From contig JBEKGO010000004.1 of the NCBI GenBank assembly GCA_050012755.1, positions 1 through 64,000 of the forward strand: 64,000 nt of DNA. The letters are read 5' to 3'. This document shows positions 33,280 to 52,545 of the stretch, piece by piece (positions within the stretch are counted from its first letter, which is position 1; every line of letters begins with the position of its first letter). The notes beneath the pieces are model-generated. The model was not told the origin of the DNA and did no database searches. It saw only the letters and a list, made by a program, of their open reading frames with translations. Both the position numbers and the translations under genes were made by a program. Origin of the DNA: Candidatus Bathyarchaeia archaeon (GTDB lineage Archaea > Thermoproteota > Bathyarchaeia > Bathyarchaeales > Bathycorpusculaceae).

Positions 33280-33363
33280 ATGTCCAATTGCAAACTCAAC
33301 AAAGGAAACACTGCATCACAGTTACTTAGCTTCGACTACTACTTTTATCGTTATTTTCCATAA
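33280..33363 (+). CDS. Putative Phe/Tyr-rich leader peptide MSNCKLNKGNTASQLLSFDYYFYRYFP
   Basis: 27-aa uORF between a TATA-like box (~33234) and Asp kinase; 7 of the last 10 codons are Phe/Tyr. Confidence 0.75.
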   Translation: MSNCKLNKGNTASQLLSFDYYFYRYFP

Positions 33364-33401
33364 GCCCAGGACTGAAAAGTTTTTTAAGAAAAGTTCTGGG
33401 C
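33364..33401 (+). promoter_or_regulatory. Stem-loop directly after the leader stop
   Basis: GCCCAGGACT(33364-73) pairs with AGTTCTGGGC(33392-401); loop contains a T6 run. Confidence 0.7.
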
Positions 33402-43640: not shown

Positions 43641-44456
43641 CTAGATTGTTTTAGGGTATGAACCTAAGATTTTGACAAAAATCGCGTATTTCTCAAGAGC
43701 TGTTAATGCCTCGCAACATTTAGCTTCGCTTCGGTGTCCCTCAAAGTCTAGGTAAAAATTATATTCCCATGCTGTTTTTTTTGTTGGTCTGGATTCGATT
43801 TTTGTCAGGTTGATGTTTCGTTTGGCGAATTCTCCGAGTGCATGGTAGAGTGAGCCTGGCTCATGTTTGGCTGAGAAGATTATGCTGGTTTTGTCTTTGC
43901 CTGTAGGTGCCGCGTCTTCTGTGTATAACACAAAGAAGCGGGTGTAGTTTTCAAGGTTATCTGCAATGTCCTTGGCGAGGATGTGCATGCCGTAAATGTT
44001 TGCTGCTCTTTCACTGGCGATTGCGGCGGCGTTTTTGAGGTTTTTTTCCTTGATCATTTTAACGCTGCCAGCGGTGTCGTAGGTGGGTATGAGTTCGCGT
44101 CCAAAATCTTCAAGGAAGCTTCGGCATTGCCCAAGAGCTTGTGGATGCGAATAAACCATTTTTATGTCTTCCAAAGATGTGCCGGGGTTTGCGATGAGGC
44201 AATGTTCAATTTTGAAAATTACTTCAGCGCAGACTTTTAAATCATAACGTAGAAAAAGGTCATAATTCTGAGGCACGCTGCCTTCTAAGCTGTTCTCAAT
44301 TGGAACAATGCCAAATTGGGTTTTTTGTGTGCATACGCTGTCAAAAACATCCTTGAAGTCTTTGCAGGGATTGACTTTGGTTTTTGCGCCGAAGAATTGG
44401 AAGGCTGCGCCTTCGCTGTATGCGCCTGGTTCGCCTTGGAAGGCTACGGTTTTCAC
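43641..44456 (-). CDS. pheA: Prephenate dehydratase
   Basis: PIENSLEG, SHPQALGQC, NYTRF, IESRP, LGSYP. Confidence 0.96.
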   Translation of the reverse strand: MKTVAFQGEPGAYSEGAAFQFFGAKTKVNPCKDFKDVFDSVCTQKTQFGIVPIENSLEGSVPQNYDLFLRYDLKVCAEVIFKIEHCLIANPGTSLEDIKMVYSHPQALGQCRSFLEDFGRELIPTYDTAGSVKMIKEKNLKNAAAIASERAANIYGMHILAKDIADNLENYTRFFVLYTEDAAPTGKDKTSIIFSAKHEPGSLYHALGEFAKRNINLTKIESRPTKKTAWEYNFYLDFEGHRSEAKCCEALTALEKYAIFVKILGSYPKTI

Positions 44457-45976
44457 TTTTTGTTTCCCTGCGTATGATTCTTTATCAGCAGCTTGTTTAT
44501 ACCGTTTATCATTGCTTCAACGCTTGCCATTACTATGTCTTCTCTGGCTGCGCGTGCGGAAACGATGTTGCCTTTTTCGTCTTCGACTTTTATGACGACT
44601 TCTGCGACTGCATTTGAGCCACCTGTGATGGCTTCAAGTCGATACTCACTTAGCCGTATGTTTTCTAGGTTGTTGGTTAATTTCTGTATGGCTTTTAGAA
44701 CTGCGTCAACTGGCCCTACTCCAGTTTCGGCGGCGATGTATTCTTTTCCGTTTAAGGTTAGTCTGACTGAGGCTGTTGGGATTACTTTGATGCCAGTTAC
44801 GACTGCCAAGTCGCACAAGTCAACGATTTTTTCTTCGCCGATTACTTGACCCATAACAGAGGAAGTTAACGCCAGCAAATCGGCATCCGTTACCATCTTA
44901 CCCTTGTCGCCTAATTCTTTGACCCGCTTCACAATCTCTTTTAGCTGCTCCTCAGATGCGTGAATGCCTATTTCTTCCAGTTCTGCTTTGATTCCTCGCG
45001 TTCCCGCCAACTTTCCCGCAACCAATTTTCTTGTGCGGCCAACCAATTCGGGTTTTATCGGCTCAAAAGTTAACGGCTTCTCAGTAACACCGCGAGTGTG
45101 AATTCCTGATTCATGGGCAAAAGCGTTTTCGCCTACAATTGCCTTGTTTGCCTGTACCGCTATACCAGTTAATGAAGCAACCAAACGCGACGTGCTGTAC
45201 AGTAATCGGGTGTTTACTCCTGTCTTGTACTTGTAGATTTCATGTAACGCCATAACTACTTCTTCCAACGAAGCATTTCCAGCGCGCTCACCTAAGCCGT
45301 TAACGGCAACGTGAACCTGAGAGGCGCCGGCTTCGATAGCGGCTAATGAGTTGGCAACTGCCAAGCCGAAGTCATCATGGCAATGAGTGCTTATCGGAAC
45401 CTTAACTACCGTTCTTAGTTCCTCAATTAGCTTGATGGTTGTTTTGGGAATCATTATACCTACGGTGTCTGGTACGTTTAGGCTGTCCATGCCTGCTTTT
45501 TCGGCGGCTTGACACACCTGTTTCAGAAAGGGCATTTCAGAGCGTGTAGCATCCATGGGTGAAAACTCACATTTCAACCCGTGTTTTTTCACGTATTCTA
45601 TAGAATCCACAGTGGAAGACAATACTTGTTGGGGTGTTAAGTTTACTGCATATTTCATTTGGACAGTCGATGTTGGAATGAAAACGTGTACTAGGCCAAC
45701 GTCGCAGTCGATTGCTGCATCAATATCGCCTTTTGTTGCTCGGGATAAAGCGCAGATTTCAGAGGTTAAGCCTGCTTTTGCTATGTCTTTGACTACTTTT
45801 TTTTCGCCTTCGGAAGAACTGGGAAAACCGGCTTCGATTGTGTCGACTCCTAACTTGTTTAGTTGGAGTGCGATCTCCATCTTATCATCTGAAGTTAAAG
45901 AAACTCCAGGGGTCTGTTCTCCATCTCTTAGTGTTGTGTCAAAAATTCGGATACGTCTTGAGGTTTTACCTGTCAT
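44453..45976 (-). CDS. leuA: 2-isopropylmalate synthase / citramalate synthase family
   Basis: DTTLRDGEQ, HCHDDFG, GERAGN, HESGIH, regulatory domain GPVDA. Confidence 0.88.
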   Translation of the reverse strand: MTGKTSRRIRIFDTTLRDGEQTPGVSLTSDDKMEIALQLNKLGVDTIEAGFPSSSEGEKKVVKDIAKAGLTSEICALSRATKGDIDAAIDCDVGLVHVFIPTSTVQMKYAVNLTPQQVLSSTVDSIEYVKKHGLKCEFSPMDATRSEMPFLKQVCQAAEKAGMDSLNVPDTVGIMIPKTTIKLIEELRTVVKVPISTHCHDDFGLAVANSLAAIEAGASQVHVAVNGLGERAGNASLEEVVMALHEIYKYKTGVNTRLLYSTSRLVASLTGIAVQANKAIVGENAFAHESGIHTRGVTEKPLTFEPIKPELVGRTRKLVAGKLAGTRGIKAELEEIGIHASEEQLKEIVKRVKELGDKGKMVTDADLLALTSSVMGQVIGEEKIVDLCDLAVVTGIKVIPTASVRLTLNGKEYIAAETGVGPVDAVLKAIQKLTNNLENIRLSEYRLEAITGGSNAVAEVVIKVEDEKGNIVSARAAREDIVMASVEAMINGINKLLIKNHTQGNKK

Positions 45977-45980
45977 TTTT

Positions 45981-47018
45981 TCAACCAGTTTTCGCAGTTA
46001 AAGCTGCAGCAATGGCTTCTGCCATTCCAACCGTCGTGGTTTTGCCGCCGCAGTCTGGAACAGATTGACGATTACTCAGAGCATACACTACCCCATTCTC
46101 TATTGCGCTACCTGCTTGTAAGCATTTTTTGTCGTTGTATTTTTCACCCAACCACTCCAGCATCATCTTTGCAGATAATATCATTGAGATTGGGTTCGCA
46201 GTGTGTTTTCCTGCCCTGTTTGGTGCTGAACCATGGATAGGTTCGAAAAGCGCAAAGTTGTCGCCAACGTTAGCGCCTGGAGCCATGCCTAAGCCGCCGA
46301 TTTGCTGAGCTGCTTCATCTGAGAGAATATCACCGAACATGTTGCATGTGCAGAAGACATCAAACACCTGTGGTTCCTTTATCAGACGCATAGATGCTGC
46401 ATCAACATATAACTCGTCAAAGGCGATGTCTGGGTACCGTTTCGCTGTTTCACGGCATACACTTGCGAATAATCCGTCGGTCACTCGCATAACGTTGGCT
46501 TTGTGTATAGCGGTTACCTTCTTTTTGCCGTTGCGTAAACGGGCAATCTCGAAGGCTTTCTTGGCTATGCGTTCACAATTTCCTCTGGTGATAACCCGCA
46601 TGCATACGGTTGTATCGTTGCCTATCGTAAATTCTAAGCCTTTGTAAACGTCCTCGGTGTTTTCCCGAACAAACATCATGTCAATGTCTGGTCTTGCAAC
46701 AGGAACGTTGGGATAAGCTTTCAAAGGACGCAGATTAGCATATAAATCGAACATTACTCTGAGCTTTACTATGACGTCAGCTGCGGTTTCGCCTACTGGT
46801 CCTTTTAGGCAGGCATGGGATTGTTTGATTTTTTGCACTGTGTCTTCTGGTAGTGCGGCGCCTCTTTTAGCTAGGGTCGCATCGCCAGCCTCTGCCTCGA
46901 TAATTTGCAGTTTTACTCCGAATTTTTTCTGTGCGGAATCTAAGACTTTTAGGGTGGCTTCGGTTAATTCTGGTCCGATGCCGTCGCCTGGGATTAAAGA
47001 TATTTTGTATTCTGTCAT
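45981..47018 (-). CDS. leuB: 3-isopropylmalate dehydrogenase family
   Basis: GDGIGPE, RENTE, NMFGDILSDEAA, EPIHGSAP. Confidence 0.88.
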   Translation of the reverse strand: MTEYKISLIPGDGIGPELTEATLKVLDSAQKKFGVKLQIIEAEAGDATLAKRGAALPEDTVQKIKQSHACLKGPVGETAADVIVKLRVMFDLYANLRPLKAYPNVPVARPDIDMMFVRENTEDVYKGLEFTIGNDTTVCMRVITRGNCERIAKKAFEIARLRNGKKKVTAIHKANVMRVTDGLFASVCRETAKRYPDIAFDELYVDAASMRLIKEPQVFDVFCTCNMFGDILSDEAAQQIGGLGMAPGANVGDNFALFEPIHGSAPNRAGKHTANPISMILSAKMMLEWLGEKYNDKKCLQAGSAIENGVVYALSNRQSVPDCGGKTTTVGMAEAIAAALTAKTG

Positions 47019-47518
47019 TTTTTGTTTATTCTCCTTCGTAAGTTTTCGATTAATCCGCCGTCTACCAATATTTCGATGATGAATGGTGGTAGCTTGTCTA
47101 CTTGAAACTTTTTGCCTTTTGAAACATTTTCTATCTTGCCCACCTCAAAATCCACGGCTAATTCATCGCCTGTTTCAACCGCTGCTGATATCCCCTTACA
47201 CTCGATCACTGGCAAGCCAATGTTTATTGCGTTTCGGAAGAAGATTCGAGCGAAAGATTCGGCTAAAACGCATTTTACGCCTGCATATTTCAGGGCTAAA
47301 GGAGCTTGTTCTCGGCTTGAACCGCAACCAAAGTTTTTGCCCACAACTATGATTACGCCTTTTTTTGCTTTTTCAGGAAACACGGGGTCTAAACCTGCCA
47401 AAGCGTGTTTAGCTAACTCGTAAGGGTCAACCAACGTCATATATTGTCCAGGCAGAATAACGTCTGTGTCAACGTTGTTTCCTAATTTTATGGCTGGTCC
47501 TTTGATTTTCATGTTCAT
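47015..47518 (-). CDS. leuD: 3-isopropylmalate dehydratase small subunit
   Basis: VDTDVILP, NFGCGSSREQA, FARIFFRNAINIG. Confidence 0.92.
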   Translation of the reverse strand: MNMKIKGPAIKLGNNVDTDVILPGQYMTLVDPYELAKHALAGLDPVFPEKAKKGVIIVVGKNFGCGSSREQAPLALKYAGVKCVLAESFARIFFRNAINIGLPVIECKGISAAVETGDELAVDFEVGKIENVSKGKKFQVDKLPPFIIEILVDGGLIENLRRRINKK

Positions 47519-48783
47519 GCTTTTGCCTCCAGAGTTCTTGGGTCAGTGATTTTTCCTGTCACAGCTGAAGCGGCTACCGTTGCTGGAGACGCTAGGTATA
47601 CGCTGGCTTGGGTGCTGCCCATTCTTCCAATAAAGTTTCTGTTTGAAGTGCTGACACATGCTTCGCCTGCTGCCAGCAACCCTATGTGTCCGCCTAAGCA
47701 CGGACCGCACGCTGAACCGCACACTATTGCGCCAGAATCAGTGAAAATTTCCAGTAAACCTTCGTTTAATGCCTGCTTGTAAACTTCCTGGGACGCTGGA
47801 ATAACTAATGCTCTAACGCCGTCTTTCACGTGTTTGCCTTTTATGACTTGGGCAGCTAAGCGTAGGTCTTCGATTCTGCCATTGGTGCATGAACCAATAA
47901 ACGCCTGTTCGATTGGAACGTTGCCTACTTTTGAAACGGGCTTTACATTGTCAACTGATGATGGACAAGCTATTTGTGGCTCCATCTTTGAAACATCAAA
48001 TTCGACGGTTCGCGCGTAATGGGCGTCTTTATCGCTTTTCAATGCGTCAAAATCGGGTAATGTTTTTACTCTGCCATCCAAAAATTTACGAGTTATTTCA
48101 TCTGGTTCGATGATGCCGTTTTTGGCGCCCATTTCCACAGCCATGTTACACAGAGTCATTCTTCCCGCTATGCTCATGGCCTTTATTGTTGGACCTGTGA
48201 ATTCTGCGGCTTCGTATATGGCACCGTCGACACACATTCGACCAATTATTGATAAGATTAAATCTTTTGGAGTAACAAAGTTTGGAAACTGACCAGTTAC
48301 GTTTATTTTTACTGTTTCCGGCACTTTCAACCAGATTTTTCCAGTGGCAAAAACCGCTGCTGCTTCGGTTGAACCTATGCCTGTGGCGAAAGCGCCGAAG
48401 GCTCCATAAGTGCAAGTATGCGAATCAGCGCCTACAATTACTGTACCTGGAACTACATGTCCTTTTTCAGGCATAACTTGATGGCAAATTCCGCCTCTCC
48501 CAATATCATATAAGCGCAGTTTTTGGTCTTTGGCGAATTGACGCATAGTCTTATGCAGTTCAGCCGCCTTAACCGATTCAGCTGGAACCTGATGGTCCAG
48601 TATTACCACTGCTTTTTGGTTATCCCAAACTTTTTGTACGCCTATTTTTTTAAAGGCTTCGACAGCTAGAGGTCCAGTTAAATCGTGCACCATTATCATG
48701 TCTACTTTTGCAGACACAATTTCGCCTGGGTGCACAACATCTTTTCCTGAAGCTTTAGCCAAGATTCTTTCTGTAATGTTCAT
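47515..48783 (-). CDS. leuC: 3-isopropylmalate dehydratase large subunit
   Basis: GADSHTCT, GSCTNGR, CGPCLG, NRNF.GRMG. Confidence 0.92.
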   Translation of the reverse strand: MNITERILAKASGKDVVHPGEIVSAKVDMIMVHDLTGPLAVEAFKKIGVQKVWDNQKAVVILDHQVPAESVKAAELHKTMRQFAKDQKLRLYDIGRGGICHQVMPEKGHVVPGTVIVGADSHTCTYGAFGAFATGIGSTEAAAVFATGKIWLKVPETVKINVTGQFPNFVTPKDLILSIIGRMCVDGAIYEAAEFTGPTIKAMSIAGRMTLCNMAVEMGAKNGIIEPDEITRKFLDGRVKTLPDFDALKSDKDAHYARTVEFDVSKMEPQIACPSSVDNVKPVSKVGNVPIEQAFIGSCTNGRIEDLRLAAQVIKGKHVKDGVRALVIPASQEVYKQALNEGLLEIFTDSGAIVCGSACGPCLGGHIGLLAAGEACVSTSNRNFIGRMGSTQASVYLASPATVAASAVTGKITDPRTLEAKA

Positions 48784-48831
48784 TGTTCGTTCTCTCTTTT
48801 ACAATAATTACTTTGAGGAATACATCATAAA

Positions 48832-48855
48832 CGGTTTCTCATTTTTGAGAAACCG
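48832..48855. promoter_or_regulatory. Perfect inverted repeat between ilvN and leuC
   Basis: CGGTTTCTCA-TTTT-TGAGAAACCG. Confidence 0.55.
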
Positions 48856-48886
48856 AAAGTTAAGCGTTTCCGTTCAAAGAAACGAT

Positions 48887-49399
48887 TTATTCGTCTATTC
48901 TTACTGTTTTTGCTCCTCTTGCCAACGCAGTGATGCCTGTTCTTGCAAGCTCAATGACACCGTGTGTTTTCATTAGGTTTAGGAATGCGTCTAATTTGTC
49001 TGGGGTTCCTGTAATCTCAACGGTTAAGCTGTCCATTGACACGTCTATGATTCGTCCTCTGAAGACTTCTACGCAGTTTATAATGTCTGAACGTTCTTTA
49101 GGTGTTGGCACGTTAACTTTTATTAAAGCTAATTCCCGCATGACAAAGTGTCCCGGCTCTAACTCCTCTACTTTTAGCACATCAATCAGTTTTGCTAGTT
49201 GCTTAACGACTTGTTCAAGTGTTTTTTCGTCGCCATTTACCGTGATTGTCATGCGTGCAACTTCGCTGTTTTGGCTTGGTCCAACTGTGATGCTTTCAAT
49301 GTTGAAGTTTCTGCGTCTAAATAAGTTAGATACGCCATGGAGAACACCGGGCTTATTTTCAACCAGCACAGAAATTGTTTTTGTTTGTCCTGTTTCCAT
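48887..49399 (-). CDS. ilvN: Acetolactate synthase small subunit
   Basis: VENKPGVL..LFRRRNFNIESITVG, ELARTG. Confidence 0.95.
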   Translation of the reverse strand: METGQTKTISVLVENKPGVLHGVSNLFRRRNFNIESITVGPSQNSEVARMTITVNGDEKTLEQVVKQLAKLIDVLKVEELEPGHFVMRELALIKVNVPTPKERSDIINCVEVFRGRIIDVSMDSLTVEITGTPDKLDAFLNLMKTHGVIELARTGITALARGAKTVRIDE

Positions 49400-51111
49400 T
49401 AGTAGTCACCTCTCTGTTGTGGTAAACCGCAGCCTGGAGGCACGAATGGAACGACATCCTGTTCTGAACCAATAGGCACATCGATTACCGTTGTAACATC
49501 GCTTTTTAGCGCTGTCTTAACTGCTTTTTGGAATTCTTCAATTGAGTTTGCCCGCAGACCTTGCGCTCCATAGGCTTCTGCCAACTTTACCATGTCAGGT
49601 GTTTTCCCTAAGTTAACTGCCATGTAACGTCGATGGTAGAGCATTCTTTGCCACTGCGCCACCATGCCTAACACTGAATTATTTAGCACTATGACTATGA
49701 CAGGAATCTTTTCAGTTACAGAGCATGCTAGTTCTTGCTCAGTCATTATGAAACTGCCGTCGCCAGCTATGTCCACCACAGGTCTATCTGGGCAAGCAAC
49801 TTTTGCTCCTATAGCCGCAGGAAAACCGAAGCCCATGGTTCCGAGTCCCCCTGAGCTGATGAAGGTTCTCGGTTTTAATGCTTGGAAATATAGCGCTGAC
49901 CACATCTGGTTTTGACCAACTTCAGTGGTGACTACTGCATTTTCCGGCAGCAGTTTTCTCAATTCCGTAAGTAGCGCTTTTGGCACTAAATCTTTGGGTC
50001 TGTCTTTTAGCAGTGGGCTCAGCTGTTCCTTTGCCTCTTTAACCCGTTTTGTCCAAGCAACGCCTTCTTTTTTGTGCAATTTACTTGTTAAGGCGGTGTG
50101 CAGCATTTTCAAAGAGGCTTTTGCATCGCCAACTATGGGTACATCAACTTCAACGTTTTTACCTATTTCTGCTGCATCAATGTCAACGTGAATTTTTTTA
50201 GCATGAGCAGCGAATGTATCTAAGTTTGCCGTTGCTCGGTCAGAGAATCTTGTTCCAACCGCTAACAGCACGTCGGCTTCACCAATCAACCGGTTTGCAG
50301 CAGGGTTTCCATGCATTCCGATACTTCCAACTGATAAGGGGTGGCCTTCAGGGAATGCGCCTTTACCCATGAACGTTGTTGCTACAGGTGCCATAAGTAA
50401 ATCTGACATTTCCATAAGCTCGTCAGAAGCATTTGAGATTATGACTCCGCCGCCTGCCAATATGAACGGTTTTTCGGCGTTTGAGAGTAGTTTAGCAGCT
50501 TCGCTGATCTTAGCCAAATCTGGATCCATTACGGGTTTATAGCCTCGGGCTTCAATGTTCTCTGTAATTCCTAAATCTACTTCAGCGGTGTCTGACTGAA
50601 CGTTTTTTGGTAGGTCAATTAGAACTGGTCCTGGCCTGCCTGAGGACGCGATGTAAAAAGCGGCGTTAACCATCGGTTGGATTTCGGCGATTGTTCTTGG
50701 CTGATAATTGTGTTTAGTGATTGGGGTGGTGATGCCAATGATGTCTGCTTCTTGGAAGGCGTCTCTGCCAATCATGTAGGAAGAGTTTGCGCTTGCCGTT
50801 GGAACCTGCCCTGTTAAAGCTATCATAGGTGAGGAATCCATGTATGCATTTGCTATTCCAGTAACTAGGTTTGTTGCTCCAGGCCCTGAAGTTGCCATGC
50901 ATACTCCGACTCGTCCGCTGGCTCTGGCATATCCTTCAGCTGCATGTGCTGCTCCCTGCTCATGTCGAGCTAGAATATGCCTAATTTTCTCGTTACCGCA
51001 TAACGCATCGTATACTGGCAGGATCGCTCCGCCTACAATGCCGAATATAACGTCTACGTTTTGTTGTTCAAGGGATTCTAATAGCACTTTTGCACCAGAC
51101 ATTTTGGTCAT
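49399..51111 (-). CDS. ilvB: Acetolactate synthase large subunit
   Basis: RHEQGA, TSGPGATN, GGLGTMGFG, GDGSF..NN TPP motif. Confidence 0.96.
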   Translation of the reverse strand: MTKMSGAKVLLESLEQQNVDVIFGIVGGAILPVYDALCGNEKIRHILARHEQGAAHAAEGYARASGRVGVCMATSGPGATNLVTGIANAYMDSSPMIALTGQVPTASANSSYMIGRDAFQEADIIGITTPITKHNYQPRTIAEIQPMVNAAFYIASSGRPGPVLIDLPKNVQSDTAEVDLGITENIEARGYKPVMDPDLAKISEAAKLLSNAEKPFILAGGGVIISNASDELMEMSDLLMAPVATTFMGKGAFPEGHPLSVGSIGMHGNPAANRLIGEADVLLAVGTRFSDRATANLDTFAAHAKKIHVDIDAAEIGKNVEVDVPIVGDAKASLKMLHTALTSKLHKKEGVAWTKRVKEAKEQLSPLLKDRPKDLVPKALLTELRKLLPENAVVTTEVGQNQMWSALYFQALKPRTFISSGGLGTMGFGFPAAIGAKVACPDRPVVDIAGDGSFIMTEQELACSVTEKIPVIVIVLNNSVLGMVAQWQRMLYHRRYMAVNLGKTPDMVKLAEAYGAQGLRANSIEEFQKAVKTALKSDVTTVIDVPIGSEQDVVPFVPPGCGLPQQRGDY

Positions 51112-51212
51112 TTCATGGTCTCCATTTATTGAAATTAACTTCTATACTCTCGTCTCGAAAAGTTTGGTTTGTATTTGTAATAATAGATTTTTCAGAGGGT
51201 TGCCTGGGCGAA

Positions 51213-51263
51213 TCACAGAATAAGTACCCGATGATCCCAGCTATTGAGGTGACGATCCCTCAT
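51213..51263 (-). CDS. Putative branched-chain amino acid leader peptide MRDRHLNSWDHRVLIL
   Basis: 16-aa uORF with GAGG SD, ends Val-Leu-Ile-Leu, stop ~100 nt upstream of ilvB. Confidence 0.7.
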   Translation of the reverse strand: MRDRHLNSWDHRVLIL

Positions 51264-51500
51264 CTTAATTCCTCTTAAATACCAGTCCTTAAAATTACAT
51301 TGCTGTACAAATAAAAGGTTTACGGTTTCAACCTCAATTGTTCAAGATTTTGTCAATATTTAATTTAAAGCGGTCGACATTAAACCTATTTTGCCCAAAA
51401 AACAAGAGTAACTCTGACCAAAAACCGAACGCAATAATTAGGTGTGCACATAAAAGCCCTTATAACCCAGATTTCTATTTTTCATATCTTGTGAAAAAAC

Positions 51501-51680
51501 ATGTGTGAATTTAATGTTATCTTAAACGGCAAAATCCAATTCAAAGATGTAATTTACGCCAGAGTTGAAGGCGCCAACGTAGTCGTCAAGAACATTTTGG
51601 GTGAAGCTAAAGAATTTAAAAACTGCAAAATCATTGAAGCCGATGTTAATTCTACAAGGCTTGTTTTGTCAGCTATTTAA
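51501..51680 (+). CDS. CooT-family nickel-binding protein
   Basis: 59 aa MCEFNVILNGKIQFKDV..KNILGEAKEF..IIEADV; N-terminal MC motif; just under the ORF-track cutoff. Confidence 0.8.
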   Translation: MCEFNVILNGKIQFKDVIYARVEGANVVVKNILGEAKEFKNCKIIEADVNSTRLVLSAI

Positions 51681-51867: not shown

Positions 51868-52545
51868 ATGAGTAACAAGCAAAAGTTTGAGCAAGATCTA
51901 ACAGTTCTAGTGTCCAGACTAACGAAAGATAGCGAAAAAGAAGTTGAAAACAAACTTAACATCCTCAAAGATTGGCTTCTAAAACTACAGAAAGCTAACG
52001 TTATAAAAATTAATCATTCTGTCATGGAACTTGTATGCGCTAAATATCTTATACAAAAAAGATACGAAGTTCAGCTTGAATACCCATTGAACGAACTTTT
52101 AATTTGCGATTTATACTCCATAAAGGGCTTAGGCAACCTTATCGTTGAAATCGAAACAGGTTATATTCCTCCAGAAAACGCTTTGGCACCCCTAACGTAT
52201 ACTTCAGCTCGGCTAGCAAGCAAAATAATACGGTACAGTAGTTTCGCTGGAAAATTTGCCTTAGGTGTACCTCCCCATTATATTCTGCCATTTCCCCGTG
52301 CACTGGCTAAACCGCCGAGAAACCGTGCAGAATGGGAAATTTTGCAGATAAAGCATTTGTGTGACGCTTATTATCAGAAACCAGCAGTTACAATTGAGGA
52401 AATCAGAAATGCCCGTATCCACGAAGTCTACATTGTTGATGTGGATAGAGGTAAAGTGCAAGAAATCGATCCTGAAGCTTACCTGAAAAGAGCCATCCAA
52501 AAAGGCATTGTCTACGATTATTTGCCACCAGAAACAAAGGGGTAA
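51868..52545 (+). CDS. Conserved hypothetical protein (PD-(D/E)xK-like)
   Basis: EYPL..CDLY..IVEIETG pattern. Confidence 0.65.
   Translation: MSNKQKFEQDLTVLVSRLTKDSEKEVENKLNILKDWLLKLQKANVIKINHSVMELVCAKYLIQKRYEVQLEYPLNELLICDLYSIKGLGNLIVEIETGYIPPENALAPLTYTSARLASKIIRYSSFAGKFALGVPPHYILPFPRALAKPPRNRAEWEILQIKHLCDAYYQKPAVTIEEIRNARIHEVYIVDVDRGKVQEIDPEAYLKRAIQKGIVYDYLPPETKG

Follow-up and report, generated by a model that had tools for sequence, protein, structure and literature searches.

The uORF upstream of the ilvB operon

We analyzed a 64,000-nucleotide stretch of DNA from a Candidatus Bathyarchaeia archaeon (contig JBEKGO010000004.1, positions 1 to 64,000; hereafter, the window) and focused on a short upstream open reading frame (uORF) in front of its branched-chain amino acid (BCAA) operon. 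The operon occupies 43641..51111 on the minus strand and is read in the order ilvB, ilvN, leuC, leuD, leuB, leuA and pheA, as assigned with Pfam and, for leuA and leuC, with NCBIfam. The initial annotation of this DNA had placed a 16-codon minus-strand uORF with a Shine–Dalgarno (SD) sequence approximately 100 nt before ilvB, and this was borne out. The uORF spans 51263..51213; its ATG (51263-51261) opens 16 sense codons, MRDRHLNSWDHRVLIL, which are closed by a TGA (51215-51213). Its SD, AGAGG, lies at 51275-51271, 8 nt 5' of the ATG. The uORF stop is separated by 101 nt from the ilvB ATG at 51111, and ilvB has an SD of its own (GGAG, 51120..51123), seen in the sequence and in the same-genus alignment. 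The uORF lies in a 389-nt intergenic region, which is bounded on the other side by a divergent CooT-like gene of 59 codons.

A block resembling the archaeal B recognition element and TATA box (BRE/TATA), ACCGTAAACCTTTTATTTG, was found at 51308..51326 on the minus strand, approximately 45-50 nt 5' of the uORF start, in columns conserved across 30 same-genus loci. A BRE/TATA-like block was present in all families inspected, and in other families an AAAG-TTTTTAAG-like block stands at an equal distance from the uORF. Judged by the archaeal promoter consensus, this block is probably the promoter; as it lies 45-50 nt ahead of the start, no other frame of the transcript would precede the uORF. A second block, GAGACGAGAGTATAG (51142..51156, minus strand), lies approximately 35-45 nt 5' of ilvB. 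It is TATA-like and is kept within the genus, as seen in the same-genus alignment, and not in other genera; it is possibly a second promoter or an operator.

Further elements on the same strand were delimited by folding and by an alignment of 55 leaders. The core, TGAGGGATC (51254..51262), is invariant, overlaps the start codon and is complementary to the 3' end of 16S rRNA. A small GAGG...CCTC hairpin (hairpin A, 51246..51261) includes in its 3' strand the Leu codon CTC (codon 6, 51248-51246). A second unit, CTGGGATCATCGGGTA (51225..51240), ends at the Val codon GTA (codon 13) and can form either a local hairpin or a helix, P3, whose 3' strand is CCCAG (51204..51208), 4 nt past the stop codon. 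The codons GTA CTT ATT CTG, encoding Val-Leu-Ile-Leu, occupy 51216..51227. CCTCT (51194..51198), followed by GAAAAA, is complementary to the uORF SD and would form with it a further helix, P1, in which the SD is the 5' strand.

Conservation of the leader

As a single observation, the uORF stands barely above chance, and its reality rests on conservation. An ending of four Val, Leu or Ile (V/L/I) codons occurred in 122 of 42021 short ATG-initiated frames genome-wide (0.29%), and this intergenic region offers 4 short ORFs. Rfam at its gathering threshold reported only 2 tRNAs over the window; no covariance-model match fell at the leader, with bacterial amino-acid leaders, the T-box and riboswitches among the models. 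At E values up to 10, region 51050-51520 gave two matches, both at chance level and antisense to the leader (18.2 and 13.7 bits; gathering thresholds, 61.5 and 50). Searching the window for GGGATCGTC at 1 mismatch was uninformative (7 matches against 5.2 expected).

We located ilvB in the relatives first and then read the upstream sequence. This was performed at 30 same-genus loci and at 15 and 40 loci from other genera and families, i.e., 85 loci, which are a subset of the approximately 240 genomes in the order that are IlvB-positive. At each of the 30 same-genus loci, the uORF has the same first 13 codons and a stop in the same alignment column, at which TGA, TAA and TAG are exchanged for one another. 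The start-plus-core pattern was present 100-200 nt before ilvB at 80 of the 85 loci, and one more locus (L033) has a one-letter variant of the core, giving 81 of 85 loci from at least 7 families. Because the element is conserved at 30/30 same-genus loci and at 81/85 loci overall, we regard it as real, and the existence of a conserved cis-regulatory element is nearly certain.

The signals of translation are kept as well. Among 80 uORFs, the start codon is ATG in 54 and GTG in 26, and one or the other is found at all 81 loci that were located via ilvB alone. GAGG or GGAG stands 7-11 nt 5' of the start in 77 of the 80. The stop codon is TGA in 32, TAA in 31 and TAG in 17, and the length ranges from 6 to 23 codons, 46 of the uORFs having 16.

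A profile search (nhmmer) showed that the element is single-copy in its own genome (E 8e-26), where all these BCAA genes form one operon. Across 401 genomes sampled from the class, the strict pattern gave 74 matches in 72 genomes against 1 control match. It was found in 71 of 168 genomes within the order and in 1 of 233 outside it; these counts are lower bounds, as variants whose first unit is of the second type are missed.

Occurrence at the heads of other BCAA operons

Three of the four exceptional loci belong to a genus with a cimA/leuA-like gene before ilvB; there, the element lies approximately 1.58 kb upstream, directly before the cimA-like gene. Of 25 genomes from this genus, 21 have it in this position, and the control gave 0 matches in 60 genomes. 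In the sister family to which this genus belongs, 60 genomes gave 19 matches to the strict pattern and 0 to the reversed control. The downstream gene was readable for 17 of the 19, two matches being cut by contig ends, and belongs to the leuC/hacA family in 13 cases and is ilvB in 4. The leuC-type copies (L178-L190 and L194) lie 117-153 nt before the leuC/hacA-family large-subunit gene, and each has its own BRE/TATA-like block. Their uORFs have 7-8 codons in 13 of 14 cases and 14 codons in one. In addition, 6 of 7 aligned leuC-type leaders contain, further downstream, a 7-nt segment that is complementary to the SD. One of the 14 leuC-type and one of the 5 ilvB-type uORFs of this family were assigned by likeness, as the contig ends before the gene. 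The element thus tracks the operon head and not ilvB itself, and it behaves as a regulon-specific cis element would.

The cimA-type loci (L218-L238) come from 21 genomes of this sister-family genus, to which the record named Ca. Bathyarchaeum tardum also belongs. In them, the cimA/leuA-like gene starts in the +1 frame relative to the uORF, and the Asp codon of its conserved DTTLRDG motif starts 25 nt past the uORF stop in 21 of 21. The gene has no SD, and in 16 of 21 it has no in-frame ATG, GTG or TTG; a conserved ATA stands 11 nt past the uORF stop. Translation of this start-less gene may depend on the uORF, by reinitiation or by recoding. Both routes are hypothetical; reinitiation at the ATA would give a more usual N-terminus than a +1 frameshift from the uORF.

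The conserved core and its complementarity to 16S rRNA

The conserved part of the uORF is its first 13 codons, and it is conserved at the nucleotide level, third positions included, in the 55 alignable leaders. The third-position entropy of uORF codons 2-13 was 0.19 bit, compared with 1.09 bit for the neighboring ilvB codons in these 55 genomes. First and second positions of the uORF gave 0.29 and 0.05 bit, respectively.

The 16S rRNA gene of the same genome ends with GGATCACCTCCT. The first 13 nt of the uORF form a predicted duplex with this tail of -11.5 kcal/mol (8 bp and one bulge), compared with -5.8 for the upstream SD. The -11.5 duplex is stronger than those of 99.1% of the -16..-3 regions of 768 long ORFs, of 99.9% of their first 13 nt, and of all 769 internal 13-mers sampled. 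Across the 80 leaders, the mean was -10.96 kcal/mol, with a range of -8.1 to -11.5. GGATCGTCACCTC was also considered as a possible mimic of the 16S tail; this idea was dropped, as the resemblance disappears in the variants with TTC at codon 5, which are the commoner ones.

The core occurs repeatedly, as a unit composed of xGG GAT, two codons and then a Leu, Ile or Val codon; the GGGATC motif is repeated 21 nt apart. All 193 GGRAT units found in 115 uORFs are in one codon phase, at spacings of 18, 21 and 33 nt. The residue four codons past xGG was L in 91, V in 79 and I in 23 of the 193 units; this 193/193 is weak evidence, as 13 of the 16 codons whose central base is U specify V, L or I, and the units are homologous, so that the independent events are few.

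Cognate codons and the Val-Leu-Ile-Leu ending

The initial annotation had taken the terminal Val-Leu-Ile-Leu as the control element and had proposed a comparison of ilvB upstream regions across Bathyarchaeia for uORFs ending in V/L/I runs. The uORF itself proved to be conserved, whereas this ending did not. The Val codon is invariant in 55 of 55 leaders, whereas the last three codons vary in the genus, and some same-genus tails have no V, L or I. In other genera, the uORF ends at 6-8 codons without a V/L/I tail, and the shortest forms contain a single Leu codon. No tandem or clearly enriched cognate codons are kept among the relatives, and enrichment is confined to the tails of this and close genera. 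There, V/L/I make up 53 of 117 in-frame tail codons (45%), compared with 24 of 87 (28%) and 21 of 87 (24%) in the other frames. The shuffle mean was 34.3 +/- 4.7, and 0 of 2000 shuffles reached 53, a contrast that is overstated because the sequences are related. The tail is a lineage-specific addition and not part of the core.

We also compared the codon content by operon type. A Val codon was present in 74 of 80 ilvB-type, 21 of 21 cimA-type and 5 of 5 sister-family ilvB-type uORFs; leuC-type uORFs contained Val in 0 of 14 and Leu in 14 of 14, and as these leuC-type leaders all belong to one family, the Val contrast amounts to approximately a single evolutionary event. This distribution is a hint of cognate-codon logic.

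RNA pairings and output to ilvB

The initial annotation had proposed nested stems, with CTGGG of the uORF pairing across the stop codon and GAGGG at the start pairing with CCCTC downstream. The first part agreed with the minimum free energy (MFE) fold, in which CTGGGATCA pairs with TGAT..CCCAG. The outer stem was different: the SD AGAGG, and not the start-region GAGGG, pairs with the downstream CCTCT, and the start-region GAGG pairs locally with CCTC. Scored over the 55 leaders, a nested model of SD-CCTCT, hairpin A and CTGGG-CCCAG had 96.8% of its cells paired, compared with 35-62% when the partners were slid, the model being derived from one of the 55 sequences on which it was scored. P1 was paired in 94.9% without any compensatory change. 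P3 was paired in 96%, with one compensatory G-C to A-U change in 9 related sequences. Hairpin A can be extended to 6 bp in variants with TTC at codon 5.

RNAalifold on the 55 leaders returned two local hairpins, one of 4 bp (GAGG-CCTC) at the start codon and the other within the second unit. CTGGG therein has two mutually exclusive partners, the local hairpin of RNAalifold or CCCAG of P3, and such exclusive partners are the raw material for a switch. The uORF SD had a predicted unpaired probability of 0.12 in the full leader. Compared with shuffles, the duplex of the SD with its downstream complement gave a mean z of -1.29 in leaders of this genus type, with 12 of 53 at p <= 0.05.

Two kinds of noncoding RNA were also considered. 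No multi-helix aptamer of the metabolite-riboswitch kind appeared in the leader, of which the helices are 4-5 bp, 1 of 14 pairs has a compensatory change and the minimal form is approximately 35 nt. A C/D box small RNA has the C box RUGAUGA, the D box CUGA and a 12-nt guide spacing. TGA..CTGA motifs in the leader were rejected as such boxes: the CTGA after CCTC is CTAA in approximately half of the loci from the genus, and the spacings are not those of a C/D box RNA.

This stretch was found in sequencing runs of peat and wetland metagenomes; a small share of it is present in a single RNA library, as contigs. A 159-nt contig from a relative in this library covers 51190-51252 and continues for 86 nt towards ilvB. 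This weakly suggests that leader and spacer lie on one RNA; the contig gives no ends, strand or level, DNA carry-over is possible, and the parts of the stretch outside the library's coverage are uninformative.

A second leader in the window

The initial annotation had counted a second cognate-enriched leader in the window, and this leader is real. It is a 27-codon uORF at 33280..33363 on the plus strand, 57 nt before an aro operon (amino-acid kinase family gene, DeoC-type aldolase, DHQS-II, aroD, aroE, GHMP kinase, aroA, aroC, aminotransferase and tyrA). Of its last eleven codons, 3 encode Phe and 4 encode Tyr. A frame with the Phe/Tyr run was found in 29 of 29 relatives in which the start of the first gene could be placed, 26 from the same genus and 3 from two other families. 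The N-terminal half varies, TAC and TAT as well as TTT and TTC interchange, and the entropy is 0.425 at third and 0.161 at first positions. At or just after the stop, a 9-bp hairpin (33364-33401), GCCCAGGAC ... GTTCTGGGC, carries T6 in its loop and is followed by a GGGTG SD; one genome has a compensatory change in it. In appearance, this archaeal uORF is a textbook aromatic leader peptide, far nearer to the bacterial model than the ilvB leader is. It raises the prior for ribosome-read leaders in this lineage.

The two leaders share one genome and a uORF placed before the cognate operon, with GCCCAG after the stop. In the aro leader, the cognate run is conserved, the N-terminal half and the third positions vary, and a 9-bp hairpin follows the stop, whereas the ilvB leader shows the reverse pattern. 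GCCCAG(G) lies 0-4 nt past the uORF stop in both (51204-51210 and 33364-33370); it pairs downstream in the aro leader and upstream into the uORF in the ilvB leader, and it may be shared design or coincidence. We also scanned this genome for SD-led uORFs rich in one amino acid and placed before long ORFs. The scan gave 21 raw candidates, none convincing as a cognate leader, and was insensitive, as it required an SD and missed the aro leader.

Interpretation of the ilvB leader

We interpret the locus as a conserved cis-regulatory leader of BCAA operons in one order of Bathyarchaeia, built on a short translated uORF, and assign this reading a probability of roughly 0.55. Start signals stand at the operon head in three gene arrangements (ilvB, cimA-like/ilvB and leuC-like), and translation of the uORF is likely. 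Sensing through the BCAA codons is possible. The initial annotation was right in kind, having named a conserved leader uORF of BCAA operons, and wrong on the Val-Leu-Ile-Leu run and on the terminator logic.

Several results weigh against this interpretation, in addition to the limits given above for the units and the Val contrast. Of 200 shuffles of 51105-51290, 143 folded as well as or better than the sequence itself, which reached -33.8 kcal/mol (shuffles, -35.96 +/- 4; z +0.54). Covarying stems were sought; one compensatory pair was found and the other 13 of the 14 pairs of the nested model had none, so that covariation is thin. The four pairs of hairpin A are invariant in 55/55 and show no covariation. 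Outside the genus type, the duplex of the SD with its complement was not significant (mean z -0.67, 4 of 24 at p <= 0.05).

No intrinsic terminator was found in the window spacer, in which the longest T run is 4, and RNAalifold showed no terminator hairpin and no terminator/antiterminator pair in the 55 leaders; terminator logic of the bacterial type is not supported here. A run of T5 or longer occurs in 31 of 80 spacers, compared with 8.0 +/- 2.4 in shuffles, and the window spacer is among those without one. Folding with the uORF masked by a ribosome footprint, a check proposed with the initial annotation, left the predicted exposure of the ilvB SD unchanged (0.35 compared with 0.33-0.35).

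Codon content argues in the same direction. V+L+I account for 25.5% of codons over the 80 uORFs, compared with a genome average of approximately 24%; the V/L/I/F content of whole uORFs is 0.375 in frame 0 and 0.365 in frame +1; and 6 of 80 ilvB-type uORFs have no Val codon. Peptide-changing first-position substitutions are commoner in the uORF than third-position changes. Because peptide-altering changes are tolerated and silent ones are rare, the peptide itself appears to be under no visible selection. Selection on a peptide would give the opposite picture, which is what the aro leader shows. Finally, pausing of ribosomes at SD-like anchors is known from bacterial work and is disputed there.

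In the mechanism that we propose, ribosomes would load on the uORF. The first codons would be frozen because the RNA itself is read, the best candidate being the pairing of TGAGGGATC with the 16S 3' end together with the small hairpin. The units would hold one frame, each ending in a Leu, Ile or Val codon, and how far the ribosome advances over them would signal the supply of amino acids and shift the leader among its alternative pairings (SD with CCTCT; CTGGG with CCCAG or within its local hairpin). For the output to ilvB, factor-dependent termination on the untranslated 100-nt spacer or a change in RNA stability could be guessed. Neither an intrinsic terminator nor an occluded ilvB SD is supported as the output.

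A more specific version can be drawn from the duplex energies and the phase of the units. The 16S-complementary anchor TGAGGGATC would hold the ribosome so that the Leu/Ile/Val codon two codons on sits in the decoding center, making each unit a single-codon starvation sensor; one or two in-frame units would stand at each BCAA operon head and would represent, with the aro leader, the first leader-peptide control in Archaea. We consider this version improbable as it stands. If true, it would be an archaeal ribosome-sensing module of new design.

Alternative explanations

The leader might instead be a structured RNA or operator bound by a protein in trans, a tRNA or a metabolite, in which the ORF is incidental or keeps the site open. 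Conservation at the nucleotide level down to third positions, tolerance of peptide-changing first-position substitutions, the GGGATC repeat at 21 nt and the presence of the same core before three operon kinds, as for a regulon site, would all be consistent with this. However, a bound RNA would not be expected to keep ATG or GTG always, with an SD at the proper distance, nor one codon phase over differing spacings with interchanging stops. Moreover, there is hardly any covariation beyond helices of 4-5 bp and no Rfam match, a minimal form of approximately 35 nt is small for a ligand pocket, and the CooT-like neighbor, found in 11 of 30 loci, is no candidate partner. We therefore regard an RNA operator as unlikely and prefer a leader built on a translated uORF.

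A classical leader-peptide attenuator, in which a ribosome stalls at Val-Leu-Ile-Leu, the stems are disrupted and a terminator is read through, is less probable still. It would account for an SD-led uORF conserved before its cognate operon, for the tail in the window and the in-frame V/L/I excess in the tails of this and close genera, and for the two exclusive pairings of CTGGG; the aro leader of the same window, moreover, looks classical. However, the tail is not conserved and uORFs of other genera stop at 6-8 codons, cognate codons form no runs and V+L+I are at the genome average, and neither a hairpin-plus-U terminator nor a terminator/antiterminator pair was found.

A DNA operator or roadblock for a transcription factor downstream of the promoter, with the GGGATC repeats as half-sites, seems very unlikely. 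An invariant block with direct repeats two helical turns apart, one site per operon head, would fit a regulon; yet the block begins exactly at an SD-led start codon and has extreme 16S complementarity, minimal forms have one repeat, spacings of 18, 21 and 33 nt all keep codon phase, and a site at approximately +25 to +65 from the inferred transcription start would be unusual for archaeal repressors. An independent small gene (micropeptide or small RNA with its own promoter) merely beside ilvB, as its strong BRE/TATA-like block and the second TATA-like block nearer ilvB might suggest, is equally hard to credit, as the element moves with the operon head and is duplicated before leuC-like genes, the encoded product shows no conservation at the peptide level and may have as few as 6 residues, the second block is genus-only, and the RNA-library contig spans core and spacer (weakly).

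Relation to known systems

The enterobacterial attenuators ivbL (ilvBN), ilvL (ilvGMEDA) and leuL have cognate runs of many codons and an intrinsic terminator composed of a hairpin and a U run. The ilvB leader shares with them a short leader ORF of a BCAA operon, Leu/Val/Ile codons and alternative pairings that overlap the ORF. It differs in having one to few cognate codons at average frequency, no terminator and first codons conserved at the nucleotide level, and in being served by archaeal RNA polymerase and termination. An SD-like anchor within an ORF is also known from the prfB frameshift site, where base pairing to the 16S 3' end sets the translating ribosome on a given codon. The uORF of the window requires no frameshift, and an anchor role here would be a hypothesis on a computed duplex energy.

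To our knowledge, leader-peptide attenuation is not established in archaea, and a full-text literature search gave no case of a leader peptide or attenuator controlling an amino-acid operon in archaea. A Methanothermobacter valine paper, in the part available, cites attenuation for bacteria only (PMC13158618). Ribosome profiling (Ribo-seq) of Methanosarcina placed approximately 10% of new small ORFs in 5' untranslated regions, where they may be uORFs; the available excerpt gives no functional cases (PMC11456600). Among bacteria, Corynebacterium glutamicum ilvBNC has a leader peptide and several hairpins before ilvB, with a three-hairpin terminator model (PMC11857589); as described in the excerpt of that source, this bacterial leader has no sequence or architectural likeness to the ilvB leader here. 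Mycobacterial polycysteine short ORFs sense cysteine via the ribosome and control operon expression (bioRxiv 10.1101/834739); according to the excerpt, they are leaderless and cognate-rich, whereas the present uORF is SD-led and not enriched.

Two operons of one archaeal genome thus have conserved leaders, and the ilvB type is order-wide, precedes three BCAA operon kinds and has a non-bacterial architecture. It offers a short, testable sequence for translation feedback on expression in archaea, where transcription termination differs. The leader is also a marker for annotating BCAA regulons in uncultured Bathyarchaeia.

Neighboring genes and minor observations

The divergent neighbor at 51501-51680 on the plus strand (59 codons) belongs to the CooT family (PF10133, 32.4 bits). 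It adjoins the leader in 11 of 30 same-genus loci and was rejected as a partner because it is kept in just these. Further along, a 225-codon ORF at 51868-52545 on the plus strand matched no Pfam family at the default threshold; a phage tail-chaperone model scored below threshold (17.6 bits compared with 27).

A second copy of the element was seen at a contig end of one same-genus genome (G160:C10:153-182). Its matched sequence does not differ from the one found in another genus (G086), and the copy may represent bin contamination or a second strain. In an Archaeoglobaceae record (L071) and a DHVE2 record (L052), V/L/I-rich short ORFs lie 93 and 212 nt before ilvB, respectively. They are unlike the leader described here and may be other archaeal BCAA leaders or small membrane peptides.

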